Positions 29,995 to 34,759 of a stretch of 59,658 nt of DNA are shown here, piece by piece. How positions within the stretch are numbered: position 1 is the first letter of the stretch; each line of letters starts with the position of its first letter. The stretch spans positions 1 through 59,658 of the forward strand of contig PBTQ01000053.1 of assembly GCA_002729125.1 (NCBI GenBank), read 5' to 3'. The notes under the pieces are model-generated. The model did no database searches. It was not told where the DNA came from and saw nothing but the letters and a program-made list of their open reading frames with translations. This stretch comes from Acidimicrobiaceae bacterium. Its GTDB lineage: Bacteria; Actinomycetota; Acidimicrobiia; Acidimicrobiales; Aldehydirespiratoraceae. The translations under genes and the position numbers were made by a program.

Positions 29995-30847
29995 GCACCG
30001 TCTCGGCGTCGGGGCGCCGATGTGGGCGAACCGGGACTGGGTCGGGCGCTCGCTTCCCGCCGGTACACCCGCCGGACGCGAACTCGATGCCTACGCCAGA
30101 GTCGTCAATGCCGTTGAGGGAAACACGACCTTTTACGCCACGCCCGATGCGGCCACGATCGATCGATGGCGTACCGCCACGGCACCCGGCTTCCGTTTCG
30201 TCTTCAAGCTCCCTCGTGAAATCACGCACGACTGGCGCCTGCGCAACACCACTGCGGAGCTCGGGATATTTCTCGACCGCATCGAACCCCTCGGGGACCG
30301 TCTCGGTCCGCTGATGATTCAGCTCCCGGCGTCGTTTCGTCCCGACGACCTTCCGGTGCTTGCGGCCTTTCTCGACACCGTCTCGACCTCGTTCGCGTGG
30401 TCGGTCGAGGTGCGGCACCTCGCCTTTCATGCCGGGGGCGACGCCGAACGGCTGCTCAACGATCTTCTCCATGAACGGTCCGTCAACCGGGTTGTGCTCG
30501 ACAGCCGTCCCGTCTTCGACGGACCTCGCGAGACGCCGGAAGAGATCGATGCCTGGGAGAAGAAGCCGCGGGTCCCCGTGCGTGCCGTCGCGACGGGGGA
30601 GCAACCGATCGTGCGGTTCATCGGGCAGATCGACGCCAACCCGCCCTACTGGAAGAAGTGGGTCGACACCGTGGTGCGTTGGCTCGATCAGGGCCGCCGT
30701 CCGGTCGTTTTCCTCCATACGCCCGACAACCTCGTCTCTCCTGAACTCTGCCGCCGGTTTCATGCCGAGGTCGCAGACCAAAGCGATGAACCAAACCTGC
30801 CGCCTGCACCACCGGTGCCGACCCAGGACGGACTGGAATTGGGGTGA
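29987..30847 (+). CDS. DUF72 (YecE-like) protein
   Basis: GAPMW, VEGNTTFYA.P, FRFVFKLPREITH, QLPASF, VEVRH, FLHTPDN; start inferred at CTG 29987 after GGAGG. Confidence 0.88.
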   Translation: MTEHRLGVGAPMWANRDWVGRSLPAGTPAGRELDAYARVVNAVEGNTTFYATPDAATIDRWRTATAPGFRFVFKLPREITHDWRLRNTTAELGIFLDRIEPLGDRLGPLMIQLPASFRPDDLPVLAAFLDTVSTSFAWSVEVRHLAFHAGGDAERLLNDLLHERSVNRVVLDSRPVFDGPRETPEEIDAWEKKPRVPVRAVATGEQPIVRFIGQIDANPPYWKKWVDTVVRWLDQGRRPVVFLHTPDNLVSPELCRRFHAEVADQSDEPNLPPAPPVPTQDGLELG

Positions 30848-30891
30848 ACCTGACCCCGACTCGGCTCGATCGAGTTGATATCGTTCAGCGC

Positions 30892-31284
30892 ATGGCGACC
30901 CCCACCTCCAACGCTCCCCGGCACACCGGGCTGCTGGTTGCGGGCCTGCTTGCGATCCCGTTCGCCTCGGTGTCGATCGCAGCGCAGTTGGGCGACATTG
31001 CCTCCACCACCGATCCCCGTGACGCCCTCGCTGGCGGTCTTGCCTTGCTCATGGGCGTAGCGCTTGGTCTTGTCGTACGGAGCGTTGTCGTCACCCTCGA
31101 CGCCCGTGTCCGAGGCGGTGTCCGGCTTGTCGCTGCGGCACTGCGTCCGCTGCCCGGTGCGATCGTCGATATCGTCGATATCGTCGGCGTCAGCGGCCGA
31201 TCGATCGGCGCGGCGACCATGCCTCGTCTCGTCTTCGTCCCCGCTGAGACTGGTCGAAGAGGACCTCCGATTCGCGTGCGCTGA
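30892..31284 (+). CDS. Small membrane leader protein ending in RRGPP (candidate ribosome-arrest peptide)
   Basis: TATCGT 7 nt before ATG; two hydrophobic segments; C-terminus ETGRRGPPIRVR*. Confidence 0.7.
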   Translation: MATPTSNAPRHTGLLVAGLLAIPFASVSIAAQLGDIASTTDPRDALAGGLALLMGVALGLVVRSVVVTLDARVRGGVRLVAAALRPLPGAIVDIVDIVGVSGRSIGAATMPRLVFVPAETGRRGPPIRVR

Positions 31285-31339
31285 GCCATCGCGGCCGCGA
31301 TCTCGCCTGGCCGCTTCCCGCACGAATCGAATCAAGGAG
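31265..31339 (+). promoter_or_regulatory. Predicted anti-SD/SD hairpin controlling the gene starting at 31349
   Basis: CTCCGATTCG (31265-31274) is complementary to CGAATC-AA-GGAG (31328-31339, containing the SD); inner GCGGCC/GGCCGC stem. Confidence 0.6.
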
Positions 31340-31348
31340 ATTTCACCT

Positions 31349-32251
31349 ATGCGCACGAACGCGCTGCGGCTGCTGGCCGCACTCTTTACCCTCTGCGTTG
31401 TCGCTGCCGCCTGTGGCGACCACGAGGCCGCGGAGGTCACCCCGCTCGACGATGTGTCCAACATGGAGGCCATCGACGAGAAACACGACCACGGCGATCA
31501 TGAAGACCATGACCACGACGATCATGACGATCATGGCGATCACGGCCAGGACCACGGGTCGCCCGTTGAATTCGAGGGTGCCGCCGTCCCGGCCCTTGGC
31601 GTCAGTGTCGAGCCCGACCCGGCCGGCGGCATCAACATCACGGTCAACACGACCAACTTCGCAGTGGTTCCTGAGGCTGCGTCTACGGCGCACGTTGAGG
31701 GCGAGGGGCACTTCCACCTCGACGTCGATGGCACGAAGGTCCAGCGCTTCTACAACGAGGCGATCTACTTCGCCGGCGTGACCGAAGGCGAGGTCACCGT
31801 CATGGTCGAGCTTTCGGCGAACGACCACCGCACCTATGCCGTCGACGGCGAGCCGATCGTCGCCATGGTGACCGTCGACGTGCCACCGCACGATCACGGT
31901 GCACACAGCCATGGTGATGCCGGCCAGGTCGCGTGGGCAGGCGAGGCGCCGCAGATGGCGATCGAGGTCGTGGAGGATCCGAAGTCGGGCTACAACGCTC
32001 TGATCACGGTCGACGGCATGACGCTCTCCGCGGAGAACGTCAACGGCGACAATGTCGATGGCGAGGGCCATCTGCACCTGCACGTCAACGGTCAAAAGGT
32101 CGGACGTCTCTACGGCGACGCCACCCACATCCCGGTGCTCCCTGTCGGCGAGGTCGAGATCACGGTTGGCGCGTTCGCCAACGACCACAGCGCCTATGTC
32201 ATCGACGGTGAACCGATCGAGGCGTCGACCTCGATCGTGGTTGCGTCATGA
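31349..32251 (+). CDS. His-rich lipoprotein with two tandem GEGH.HL.V.G...ANDH domains (putative metal-binding)
   Basis: AAGGAG SD; lipobox VAAA-C; HDHGDHEDHDHDDHDDHGDH tract; internal ~100-aa duplication. Confidence 0.85.
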   Translation: MRTNALRLLAALFTLCVVAAACGDHEAAEVTPLDDVSNMEAIDEKHDHGDHEDHDHDDHDDHGDHGQDHGSPVEFEGAAVPALGVSVEPDPAGGINITVNTTNFAVVPEAASTAHVEGEGHFHLDVDGTKVQRFYNEAIYFAGVTEGEVTVMVELSANDHRTYAVDGEPIVAMVTVDVPPHDHGAHSHGDAGQVAWAGEAPQMAIEVVEDPKSGYNALITVDGMTLSAENVNGDNVDGEGHLHLHVNGQKVGRLYGDATHIPVLPVGEVEITVGAFANDHSAYVIDGEPIEASTSIVVAS

Positions 32252-32592
32252 GCCGCGGACGTCTCATTGCCGTCGCTGCGCTCGGGGCCCTTGTGGCTGC
32301 GTGCGGCGGCAGCGACAGCGGTGCCGTCTCGGCTGAAGATGAGATCATCCTCGAGTTCGATGACGATGGTGGTCTCGTCGGCGGCGTTCGTCGGGAGTCA
32401 GTCGATCTCGGTTCGAAGGTGACCATGATCGTCGAAGGCAGCACCGATGAGCAGGTGCACGTCCACGGTTACGACCTCTACATCGAACCCGAGGGTCCCG
32501 CCGCCCTTGAGTTCGACGCCCTCATCCCCGGGCGCTTCGAGGTCGAACTCGAGCAGTCCGGTCAGTTCCTCATCGAGCTCACGGTCTCATGA
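32248..32592 (+). CDS. Small cupredoxin-like lipoprotein
   Basis: Lipobox LVAA-C; EQVHVHGYD...PGRFEVELE beta-sandwich pattern; ATGA overlaps on both sides. Confidence 0.7.
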   Translation: MSRGRLIAVAALGALVAACGGSDSGAVSAEDEIILEFDDDGGLVGGVRRESVDLGSKVTMIVEGSTDEQVHVHGYDLYIEPEGPAALEFDALIPGRFEVELEQSGQFLIELTVS

Positions 32593-33977
32593 CCCGTCGT
32601 AGCCGCCTCGGTATCGCAACCGTCCTCGCCGGCGTGGCGGTGGCGGTCGCAACGCCGGCCGCTGCTCACGGCATCGGTGGCCGTACCGATCTGCCGTTGC
32701 CGGCCTGGCAGTTGGCGTGGGCGGCCGGCTTCGCCGTTGCGAGCTCCTTCGTGGCGCTTGGCGCGTTCTGGTCGCAGCCGCGGCTCGTCGCTGCGGCAGG
32801 CGGAGGGCGGACCCTCGTCGACACCCGGCGCCCGGTGATCCGCTGCCTTGAGTTCATCACCAAGTCGATCGGCGTGTTCCTCTTCGGCGTGCTCATGTGG
32901 GCAGCCTGGAGGGGCAACCCGAACGGGGCGGTCAATATCGCAGGCGATGCGTTGCTGATCTGGTTCTGGGTCGGCTTGCAGCTCGTGTCGTTCCTGTTAG
33001 GTGACGTCTGGCGAATGTTCAATCCCTTCGTCACGATCGCCAACTCGGGCGCGTGGGTTCGAGCCAAGATTCGGGGGGAAGAAGCGGCCCCAACCGAAGA
33101 CACGGGTCGGCTCAGCCTCTGGCCGGCCGTCGCTGCGATCTTCGCCTACCTGTGGTTCGAACTCGCCTATCACTCGACCGACAGCCCCCGATCGATCGCC
33201 GTGTTTCTCACCGTCTACTCGGTGGCGATGATCGGCGGCGCGACCGTGGAAGGCCGCGGCTGGGTGCGCCGAGCCGATGGCTTCGCCGTGTTGTTCACAA
33301 AGTTGGCCGCCATGTCGCCGATCCATCGCGACGACGACGGTCGTCTGCGGCTGCGTTCACCGCTCGCCGGGCTGTCGACCCTGCCTGACATCCCCGGCAC
33401 GGTGCCGTTCATCCTCGTGGTGCTCGGCTCAACCACGTTCGACGGCTTCACCCGCAGCTCGATCTGGCTCGACATCGCGGGTGAACAGACCGGCTGGGGC
33501 CGCACGGTCAGCAGCACGGTCGGCCTGCTCGTCATCACCGGGCTGGTCGCCATGGCCTACTCGGTTGCCATTTCGGCGATGGCGAATATCACCAGGGAGG
33601 AGTCGGTCGAGCTGAGCCGGTTGTTCGGGCCGACGCTCGTTCCGATCGCAGCGGCCTACGCCGTCGCCCACTACTTCAGCTTTCTCGTGCTCACCGGTCA
33701 GCGGATGTTCATCCGGATCAGCGATCCGGCCGGTCGCGGTTGGGATCTGTTCGGCACCGCCGATTACGCGATCGATTGGACGATCGTGTCGCCGGCCACG
33801 ATCGCGTGGGTGCAAACCCTTGCGATTGCGATCGGTCACGTTGCAGGTGTCGCAGCGGCTCACGATGTCGCGGTTAGTCGGTACGACCACCGACTCGCTG
33901 TCAGGTCGCAGTATCCGATGCTGGCTGCGATGATCCTCTACACCGTTCTCGGGCTCTTCCTCCTGCTTGGCGCCTAG
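32589..33977 (+). CDS. Multipass membrane protein of unknown function with N-terminal His after the signal peptide
   Basis: PAAA-HGIGG predicted cleavage site; about 10 TM segments; AHYFS, GHVAGVAAAHD, SQYPML..M..YT. Confidence 0.85.
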   Translation: MTRRSRLGIATVLAGVAVAVATPAAAHGIGGRTDLPLPAWQLAWAAGFAVASSFVALGAFWSQPRLVAAAGGGRTLVDTRRPVIRCLEFITKSIGVFLFGVLMWAAWRGNPNGAVNIAGDALLIWFWVGLQLVSFLLGDVWRMFNPFVTIANSGAWVRAKIRGEEAAPTEDTGRLSLWPAVAAIFAYLWFELAYHSTDSPRSIAVFLTVYSVAMIGGATVEGRGWVRRADGFAVLFTKLAAMSPIHRDDDGRLRLRSPLAGLSTLPDIPGTVPFILVVLGSTTFDGFTRSSIWLDIAGEQTGWGRTVSSTVGLLVITGLVAMAYSVAISAMANITREESVELSRLFGPTLVPIAAAYAVAHYFSFLVLTGQRMFIRISDPAGRGWDLFGTADYAIDWTIVSPATIAWVQTLAIAIGHVAGVAAAHDVAVSRYDHRLAVRSQYPMLAAMILYTVLGLFLLLGA

Positions 33978-34759
33978 ACCGGCGCGAGTCGCTCGGAGAG
34001 AAACTCGAGGGTTCGAGCCAACGCCACCTGGCTCGGATGATCAGGCTGGTCATCCGGGGCCAGGTGCTCGGTCAACACGCTGTGATCCTGCTTGCCGGTC
34101 TCGGCCCCGGGTGTGTCGTTGGGACTCGGAATCTCTTCGTGCAAAAAGTTGTCCCCGAGTGTGTGCTTGAGGGTGGCGAAACGCTCGCCAGGGACGAGCG
34201 CGTCGCCGGTGAAGCGAAGCCCGAGCACAGGACAGCCCGTGGCGGCAACGGCGGCGAGTTCGTCGGCGCTGAGCCCGGTCGATGCCTTCCGGGCACCGCC
34301 GAAGCCGAACGGCAGGCTCGGCTGACTGAGCACCGGCGCAACCACCGTGTCGTCGAGCAGCATCGCGAGTCCGAAACCACCGGTGAAGCACATGCCGACG
34401 AACCCGACGCCCGGACCACCGTGGCGTCGGTGGAGGTCACGGGCGAGGGCCCGCAGCCAGGCGGTGGCGGGGGAGGAGTCCCGGGTGGCAAGGACGTGGA
34501 ACTCTCGGCTCACGCACGCCTTGGCGATCACGCCGAGAGCACGCCGCGTCGATGATGGTCTCCCAGGGGTGCCGAAGAGCGATGCGATCGCGACGGAGAA
34601 ACCGCGGTCGACCAGTCGGTCGGCGAAGCCGGCGACGTTCGGTGTGATCCCGGGGATCTCGGGCGCGACCAGAACGCAGGGCCCGGTACCCCGGTGGCAC
34701 ACGTCGTGTGTGATCCCATCGGCGCTGAACGGTTCGACTCGGTAGTCGGCGAGTGGCAT
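33974..34759 (-). CDS. Dienelactone hydrolase family protein
   Basis: EIPGITP, GMCFTGG, SQPSLP, LRFTGD, HSVLT; start MPLADY (34771 is an alternative). Confidence 0.85.
   Translation of the reverse strand: MPLADYRVEPFSADGITHDVCHRGTGPCVLVAPEIPGITPNVAGFADRLVDRGFSVAIASLFGTPGRPSSTRRALGVIAKACVSREFHVLATRDSSPATAWLRALARDLHRRHGGPGVGFVGMCFTGGFGLAMLLDDTVVAPVLSQPSLPFGFGGARKASTGLSADELAAVAATGCPVLGLRFTGDALVPGERFATLKHTLGDNFLHEEIPSPNDTPGAETGKQDHSVLTEHLAPDDQPDHPSQVALARTLEFLSERLAPV

Follow-up and report, generated by a model that had tools for sequence, protein, structure and literature searches.

We analysed a window of 59,658 nucleotides (nt), positions 1 to 59,658 of contig PBTQ01000053.1 (assembly GCA_002729125.1), from an Acidimicrobiaceae bacterium whose closest relatives are marine Acidimicrobiales. 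The window contains an operon (Table 1) for which we favour, on balance, a function in ATP-independent copper acquisition under the control of a ribosome-arrest peptide. A previous sequence-only reading had described the locus as a three-gene envelope metal-handling module consisting of a capture lipoprotein, a shuttle and a permease. The three open reading frames (ORFs) were indeed found where that reading had put them, and the ATGA overlaps from which translational coupling had been proposed are present at both junctions (genes 1/2 and genes 2/3). The module is, however, one of four genes, as a conserved leader ORF ending in RGPP is the first gene of the operon. The claim that no ATPase is encoded nearby holds for the operon itself, but the opposite strand carries two ABC-exporter genes at a distance of 2.9-6.6 kb downstream. 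Neither the leader nor genes 1-3 gave a Pfam or NCBIfam match above cut-off, and the GC content of the operon matches that of the remainder of the window. In contigs from RNA runs, the operon and its flanks were covered alike, mostly at 90-95% identity (shares of words 0.05-0.09), which gives no evidence of expression.

Table 1. Features of the operon in window coordinates (aa, amino acids)
Feature	Position	Strand	Description
-10 hexamer TAnnnT	30879..30884	+	7 nt before leader start codon; predicted leaderless promoter
Leader ORF	30892..31284	+	130 aa; two hydrophobic segments, C-terminal RGPP; predicted ribosome-arrest peptide
RGPP codons	31258-31269	+	C-terminus of leader
Predicted mRNA hairpin	31265..31339	+	leader codons 31265-31280 (Pro-Pro and following) pair with 31319-31339
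Shine-Dalgarno AAGGAG of gene 1	31334-31339	+	inside 3' arm of hairpin
Gene 1	31349..32251	+	300 aa; lipoprotein with H/D tract and two His-rich FN3/Ig-like (DUF4399-like) domains
Gene 2	32248..32592	+	114 aa; Cys-free cupredoxin-fold lipoprotein with conserved H71, H73, E100, E/H102
Gene 3	32589..33977	+	462 aa; signal peptide and ~10-helix membrane protein; candidate permease

Gene 3 belongs to a large family, represented by 5303 sequences (clusters at 50% identity, E<=0.001). Its members were present in 64 of 301 Actinomycetota genomes, the host of the operon included, and on 66 plasmid records of Actinomycetota, Proteobacteria and haloarchaea. Besides the signal peptide, the protein showed nine hydropathy segments, and its AlphaFold model (predicted local distance difference test, pLDDT, 88) contained ten long helices that we read as membrane-spanning, in agreement with the approximately ten transmembrane helices proposed before. 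The motifs AAA-HG (cleavage predicted before the His), AHYFS, GHVAGVAAAHD and YPMLAAM were all present. The His residues, whose conservation was expected under the metal-handling proposal, proved almost invariant, far beyond what chance would give, in an alignment of 106 family members 28-47% identical to the query (H27 in 105, H361 in 104, H417 in 99, H425 in 101), as did E191 (101) and D285 (105), while M448 was kept in 92. The same residues were conserved in 57 gene 3 loci under 45% identity. The suggestion that H27 becomes the first residue of the mature protein, as in CopC, holds for about half of the family; in 48/105 members at most 12 residues precede H27, so signal cleavage is not always what exposes it. 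No PDB sequence search returned a match for gene 3, and the CopD family (PF05425) matched neither gene 3 at E<=1 nor the 106 members at E<=0.3. No description of the function of this family was found in the literature searched, subscription journals being outside its reach.

The relationships of gene 3 became apparent from another direction. A likeness to 4Fe-4S-binding membrane proteins led to a homology test with Fer4_5, a family that includes NapH, MauN, CcoG and FtrD. The gene 3 family profile matched 5/29 CxxxCP-containing ORFs from Fer4_5 loci (HMM E 5e-22 to 3.5e-9, Z=1000), and HHalign aligned the family with these relatives at 99.1% probability (E 1.3e-18, 338 columns), the alignment on the Fer4_5 side consisting of 5 sequences only, from a ~460-510 aa actinobacterial Fer4_5 (PF12801) subfamily. 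CxxxCP is present in none of the 106 gene 3 family members, in which the ferredoxin insert is deleted; each of the five relatives has Cys at the places that correspond to gene 3 positions 142/145 and 226/230. H361 is common to both groups; H27, H417, H425 and M448 are absent from the five iron-sulfur (Fe-S) relatives. Judging from these alignments, gene 3 is an Fe-S-free relative of the Fer4_5 membrane polyferredoxins, a kinship that the sequence-only reading had overlooked together with the arrest-peptide leader. From this unrooted comparison we infer that the direction of evolution was Fe-S loss. CcoG also carries the Fer4_5 Pfam domain. According to a 2020 review, it is a membrane cupric reductase that acts through two Fe-S clusters (PMC7558416). 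As both Fe-S motifs are lost, gene 3 could not reduce metal in the manner of CcoG. The former Cys motifs, when placed in the cytoplasm, would set the topology of gene 3, with H27 facing outward, H361 in the outer half of the membrane, and H417, H425 and M448 deeper, in its middle or inner leaflet. No Fer4_5 protein was found in the host genome or in four others.

The existing database name suggests something quite different. Two of the three closest ESM Atlas clusters are named 'fenitrothion hydrolase family protein', a label that turns up in insecticide-microbiome papers, and the family is presumably that of the original Burkholderia FedB. Gene 3 might accordingly be a membrane metallo-enzyme, such as an organophosphate or ester hydrolase, and its conserved His, Asp and Glu could make a catalytic metal site. 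We find this hardly credible, as gene 3 has no hydrolase fold or hydrolase Pfam match and no organophosphate-degradation genes were present in the neighbourhoods scanned; what it shares with FedA/FedB is the automatic name of its nearest clusters, and no support for a hydrolase function was found.

The product of gene 2 contains the motif VHVHGYD, and its sole Cys is Cys19 of the lipobox; as pointed out earlier, it cannot form a classical type-1 Cu site. Nor is there a Cys ligand for a CuA site in the region of the C-terminal loop, where Glu/His are conserved instead. Among 62 members, H71 and H73 were each present in all, E100 in 61, and position 102 was Glu in 45 and His in 17. The gene 2 profile matched a two-domain laccase at HxHG, CuA domains and nitrosocyanin, and the Cupredoxin_1 family was matched by 21/55 members at E<=0.5 (best 4.5e-9). 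In the model of a fusion protein (P0228, pLDDT 90), the domain homologous to gene 2 matched NirK at Z 10.3 (root-mean-square deviation, rmsd, 2.4 A, 90 residues aligned), NirK and nitrosocyanin matches together spanning Z 10.2-10.3, rmsd 2.3-2.4 A and 87-90 aligned residues; CupA and FtrB were matched as well. By the modelled domain, gene 2 is a cupredoxin beta-sandwich. In multicopper oxidases, paired HxH ligands are placed at domain interfaces, and from the likeness of the gene 2 HxH to these it seems plausible, by analogy, that its metal site is completed by a partner. Gene 2 is adjacent to gene 3 in 56/87 loci.

The match to FtrB raises the question of whether the operon takes up iron in the way of FtrABCD or EfeUOB, with the cupredoxin oxidising Fe(II) by means of a Cu cofactor and gene 3 passing the iron. 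FtrD is a membrane polyferredoxin-type protein, and gene 3 is kin to these; moreover, in FtrABCD too, membrane proteins are accompanied by a cupredoxin that lacks a type-1 site. This cupredoxin, FtrB, is structurally close to the gene 2 domain (Z 9.3, rmsd 2.5 A, 86 aligned), and haloarchaeal members of the gene 3 family adjoin P19-like genes. FtrB is reported to bind Cu without an HHC site, with ligands (D118, H121 and an acidic cluster) that are unlike the HxH...ExE/H set of gene 2 (PMC11966278). The operon itself has no FTR1 permease and no FtrA/P19, and no FTR1 permease, P19 or EfeO was present among the neighbours scanned in actinobacterial loci. With the Fe-S clusters lost there would also be no electron sink, and the CopC, SCO, CtaG and copper-monooxygenase contexts described below favour copper. 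Iron uptake is therefore decidedly unlikely in our view.

Gene 1 agreed well with its earlier description. It has a lipobox (Cys22), an H/D tract (residues 42-70) whose 29 aa include 9 His and 13 Asp/Glu, and two tandem domains that share 37.5% identity across 96 aa (E=2e-22), each with GEGH(F/L)HL and ANDH. It has 188 homologues; the H/D tract varies, whereas the domain His residues are conserved, both in the first domain (H121 93/94, H123 86/94, H160 90/94) and in the second (H241 93/94, H243 91/94, H280 93/94). The two gene 1-type domains of P0228 matched FN3/Ig-type folds at Z 8-9, and a gene 2 domain was fused at the C-terminus in 28 of 120 gene 1 homologues among the matches listed. Since DUF4399 (PF14347) did not match gene 1 itself, and precomputed matches to it occur in some gene 1 homologues and are also carried by Atlas neighbours, we call gene 1 DUF4399-like only. 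PDB sequence searches returned only low-complexity matches to the H/D tract.

The distribution of the genes shows which of them belong together. A gene 1-type domain was present in only 22/87 loci, so gene 1 is accessory and only genes 2 and 3 form the conserved core of what had been taken as a unit of three. Co-occurrence elsewhere was thus confirmed for the gene 2-gene 3 pair, while the three-gene form was limited to one marine Acidimicrobiales clade. The full four-gene order was observed in 16/37 GTDB loci and 23/42 metagenome loci (those with enough upstream DNA); the leader stood directly 5' of gene 3 in one GTDB locus and one metagenome locus.

For a view of the family in its genomic contexts, we chose 40 loci by hand, 20 with strong and 20 with weaker matches, among the 63 genomes that were positive in a 300-genome phylum sample; one genome is represented twice. 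Together with 15 close loci, they yielded 448 called neighbours, and the 230 proteins scanned came almost all from this set, mostly the nearest ones; the counts are raw tallies without a background rate. The tallies include the unpublished genomes G018, G174, G226, G239 and G268 (among the positives) and, among the 57 loci, L045; no claim is made on these alone. In the survey for copC/D, ycnI, SCO and PCuAC that had been proposed, a copper-related Pfam neighbour (copC, copD, ycnI, SCO1, ctaG or COX subunits) was detected in 11/40 loci. The gene copC lay directly upstream of the gene 3 homologue in L080, L081, L084, L086 and L087, five loci in one family with a divergent gene 3 subfamily, and copC-copD was present in L083 and ycnI in L086. 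The remaining cases were COX1/2/3 in L106, SCO1 in L109, L111 and L112, ctaG in L112, and COX3 in L115. When loci with a His-bearing leader (see below) were added, the union amounted to 19/40. An Acidimicrobiia locus (L029) has the order COX3-COX4-ctaG-cupredoxin-permease. Among 10 plasmid regions, 2 were in copper-monooxygenase clusters, 3 were haloarchaeal, 4 had no clear metal context and 1 was unannotated. In the first two, both mycobacterial, the cupredoxin-permease pair is located closely 3' of sigC (one gene intervenes in one plasmid), and PMC7924339 states that SigC prevents copper starvation in M. tuberculosis. COX3 was found in 55/63 positive genomes, and only 8 of the 127 COX3-negative genomes were positive, kin among these genomes not being independent. 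Two COX1-family genes are present in the host genome (90% complete); searches there for CopC, YcnI, SCO1 and PCuAC gave no match. While Zn, Ni and Cu had all been left open by the sequence-only reading, the copC, SCO, CtaG and copper-monooxygenase contexts, together with the His/Met conservation, the cupredoxin fold of gene 2 and the gene 1-gene 2 fusions, favour copper over Zn/Ni.

The same contexts can be read in two other ways. One is an envelope metallation scaffold without transport, in which gene 3 and the cupredoxin load extracytoplasmic cuproenzymes (CuA/CuB oxidases, copper monooxygenases), as SCO, PCuAC or CtaG do. The neighbours are often assembly factors or target enzymes (SCO1, ctaG, COX, hmoCAB), the host genome lacks a match to SCO1 or PCuAC, and related Fer4_5 proteins are not known as permeases. 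The newly conserved H417, H425 and M448, however, would be located in the middle of the membrane or its inner leaflet, as would suit a transmembrane path, and CopC, which stands directly 5' of a gene 3 homologue in five loci, is normally the partner of an importer. We consider this alternative unlikely, if the most serious of those weighed here. The other is detoxification or efflux of Cu or Zn, or a metal-sensing membrane component, induced by excess metal as in CutF-CutO. Arrest leaders can induce detoxification genes too, according to bioRxiv 2025.02.05.636593, haloarchaeal members stand near heavy-metal P-type ATPases, and P-type ATPase genes are located near two of the five Fer4_5-relative loci (one with an HMA domain). 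The contexts with sigC or a cuproenzyme operon are more in keeping with supply than with export, though; the scanned neighbours included no multicopper oxidase and, in the actinobacterial loci, no Cu(I)-type P1B ATPase either. Detoxification is thus quite improbable.

Under the reading of copper acquisition, the leader would provide regulation. R123, G124, P125 and P126 were invariant in 17/17 leader orthologues that are only 28-83% identical, and 24/25 leader-profile matches in metagenome loci end in RGPP. The orthologues stand 36-74 nt before the next start on the same strand (17 loci). The leader is one of only 2 matches to a C-terminal R[AG]PP among 4348 scored genome ORFs, a number equalled by the A[AG]PP control (also 2). 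According to PMC12992588, actinobacterial ribosomes are arrested by peptides with C-terminal RAPP/RGPP, and such peptides are over-represented upstream of ycnI and PCu(A)C genes. The leader shows the features of such upstream ORFs, as it is small, of membrane type with two hydrophobic segments, and ends in an invariant RGPP. It resembles in these features, and in its position before an envelope operon, the arrest peptides CruR, CutF, ApdA/ApdP and S. lividans SLIV_18480. In contrast to CruR and CutF (DUF2946) and to SLIV_18480, it lacks ligands of the CxxC or membrane His kind: neither Cys nor His is conserved across the 17 orthologues, and DUF2946 did not match it. The leader was not detected in 150 other genomes of the class. 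We predict from these sequence features that it is a ribosome-arrest peptide controlling the operon.

A sigma-70 consensus scan found no promoter, and the -10 box emerged from cross-species comparison: TAnnnT stands 7-8 nt 5' of an in-frame leader start in 17/17 orthologous loci, compared with 0/564 start-like codons inside gene 3 of these loci. Such spacing between the -10 box and the start marks leaderless transcripts in Actinobacteria, so we read the hexamer as a leaderless promoter. The hairpin over the ribosome-binding site (RBS) of gene 1 is the minimum free energy structure, with a z of only -1.44, weak alone. The cognate leader-RBS duplex outperformed 90% of synonymous recodings in 15/17 loci; when it was compared with shuffles, it outperformed 95% of them in 14/17. 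Among the 17 partner regions it ranked first or second in 11/17; the loci being related, these are non-independent trials. A hairpin over the next RBS has also been described for CutF-cutO, where stalling melts the stem-loop that covers it (bioRxiv 2025.02.05.636593).

Elsewhere in the gene 3 family, a different leader was observed. In 10/40 sampled loci, the operon is preceded by a hydrophobic RAPP/RGPP-type leader with two invariant His (one ends in RRPPP), of the same family as the leader preceding ycnI in L086. These His-bearing leaders of other lineages likely sense the metal. The RGPP leader has no metal ligand and would hardly respond to metal by binding it directly; its signal may be a partner or membrane-insertion force. 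Homology between the two kinds of leader was considered and rejected (HHalign probability 1%).

Taken together, the proposed capture-shuttle-permease system remains the best-supported reading of the operon, owing to the His/Met conservation of gene 3, the cupredoxin fold of gene 2, the fusions and the copper neighbourhoods, with the qualification that gene 1 is dispensable. We propose the following model. Capture would begin at the cell surface, where the H/D tract of gene 1 and its His triads would accumulate Cu(II), a step that would matter in copper-poor seawater and be dispensable elsewhere. The His2-Glu-(Glu/His) surface site of the cupredoxin would pass Cu to the outward N-terminal His27 of gene 3; in other lineages, CopC would hand it over instead. 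From there H361, H417, H425 and M448, on the last three helices, could form a relay across the bilayer. The imported copper would likely supply cuproenzymes such as heme-copper oxidases. As to regulation, stalling of a ribosome on RGPP would open up the hairpin that covers the RBS of gene 1, and the ATGA overlaps would carry translation on to genes 2 and 3.

Several observations are not readily accommodated by this model and weigh against it. As for gene 3, the MxxxM of its YPML..M motif, highlighted earlier, is only half conserved, M448 being kept as stated above but M444 in only 48/106 members. H27 is missing in two haloarchaeal members and one actinobacterial member, and fold searches matched no solved fold or transporter fold, which does not show that the fold is new. 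In these searches, which also bear on a 12-helix fold of the major facilitator superfamily (MFS), the best Foldseek match had an E of 0.036 with TM <=0.16, and VIA matches were helical bundles (Z<=8.5, rmsd >=3.5 A). Gene 3 stood alone in 14/37 GTDB loci and 15/42 metagenome loci, and 21/40 loci had neither a copper neighbour among the scanned genes nor a His-bearing leader. The three haloarchaeal plasmid regions are near heavy-metal P1B ATPases that have CPC and lack the YN/MxxSS motifs of the Cu(I) type, and also near P19-like DUF7350 genes. Four positive genomes (93-99% complete) lack both COX3 and COX1, and CopD is present in 47/63 positive genomes; for the latter reason, a replacement of CopD by the gene 3 family at the genome level was rejected. 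With respect to the leader, the lack of a metal ligand and of homology to the His-bearing leaders belong here as well. Moreover, blocking the stall site raised the accessibility of the Shine-Dalgarno sequence by >0.2 in only 7/17 loci (mean 0.30 to 0.48), and RNAalifold gave no consensus hairpin on a MAFFT automatic alignment.

Among known systems, CopCD, YcnJ(I) and E. coli AZY are among the closest; each of them pairs, without ATP, an extracytoplasmic protein that has a His site with a polytopic membrane protein whose His residues are conserved. Gene 3 differs from CopCD/YcnJ in that it has no CopD match, co-occurs with CopD, usually has a cupredoxin as partner and is here under arrest-leader control; partnering with CopC or YcnI was not encountered in the host genome (90% complete) and was seen only in the divergent subfamily (5 loci). 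By analogy, the operon most likely works like CopCD/YcnJ without being a member of that group. With CcoA/CalT it shares membrane Met/His residues of the kind proposed there as a Cu path (PMC7558416), but gene 3 has no MFS Pfam match, and no MFS fold was recognised in the fold searches. In that review, CcoA is presented as the prototype inner-membrane copper importer, CopD/YcnJ are implicated, and further uncharacterised importers are expected.

Copper import for respiratory oxidases in bacteria is a long-standing question, and about one fifth of the sampled Actinomycetota genomes carry the gene 3 family under its 'fenitrothion hydrolase' auto-label. More tentatively than for the operon itself, we put forward the possibility that gene 3 founds a new class of prokaryotic copper importers, with thousands of clusters in Actinomycetota, Proteobacteria and haloarchaea. 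Such a class might have arisen from a polyferredoxin by loss of Fe-S clusters and gain of a His/Met relay, and might work with capture proteins that can replace one another (Cys-free cupredoxin, CopC, DUF4399-like Ig), gated by no fewer than two unrelated RAPP/RGPP leaders, one without a metal ligand. If true, this would add an importer with a new fold, an instance of a redox scaffold becoming a transporter, and an arrest peptide that cannot sense metal by binding it directly. Homologues are present in tractable hosts, in Haloferax volcanii (HVO_RS04650) and in the plasmid cluster of Mycolicibacterium chubuense NBB4 (MYCCH_RS28725).

Further observations concern the surroundings of these genes. 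In the window, a DUF72 gene (30020-30847) ends just 5' of the leader, its stop overlapping an in-frame GTG 16 codons before the leader ATG; DUF72 is still upstream in relatives without the leader or genes 1-2 (L012, L021). On the other strand, a dienelactone-hydrolase-family gene (33974-34741) overlaps the permease stop codon by 4 nt. The only CopD-like match of the host genome, below cut-off, is a 143-aa frame (G000:C10:32454-32684). One permease homologue (P0313) carries a fused beta-propeller of the F510_1955 family (NCBIfam E 7.7e-34, below cut-off), and in L210 a protein that looks alike by eye precedes the Fer4_5 relative, itself 3' of a DUF6153 gene. The Fer4_5 relatives of L210-L214 (~460-540 aa) have a PM-A/S-x-x tail at their end, and among the genes near them are also PCYCGC, DUF1573 or multiheme ones.

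In haloarchaea, a small protein replaces the cupredoxin 5' of the permease (L074:6465-6722, L079:6382-6648, L184:5555-5812), with a CxxC...H zinc-finger-like motif and a C-terminal helix in L074 and L079. In genomes of family f43, a ~612-aa membrane protein without Pfam or NCBIfam match is encoded upstream of the cupredoxin-permease pair (L094:2713-4548, L095:3142-4977, L098:2996-4837, L099:2861-4690), and a peptide of ~50-60 aa is usually encoded between them. The membrane protein has two W/L-D-x-x-x-H...P-x-H motifs, which may be reminiscent of the copper site of PmoC/AmoC. Finally, a 55-80-aa single-helix peptide with an N-terminal His, absent from this window, is encoded 3' of the permease in many loci (L100:6673-6873, L101:6771-6935, L104:4714-4953, L105:4729-4950, L108:4672-4875, L109:6458-6664, L119:6440-6664), and some of these peptides carry a C-terminal CxxC-CxxC ribbon.

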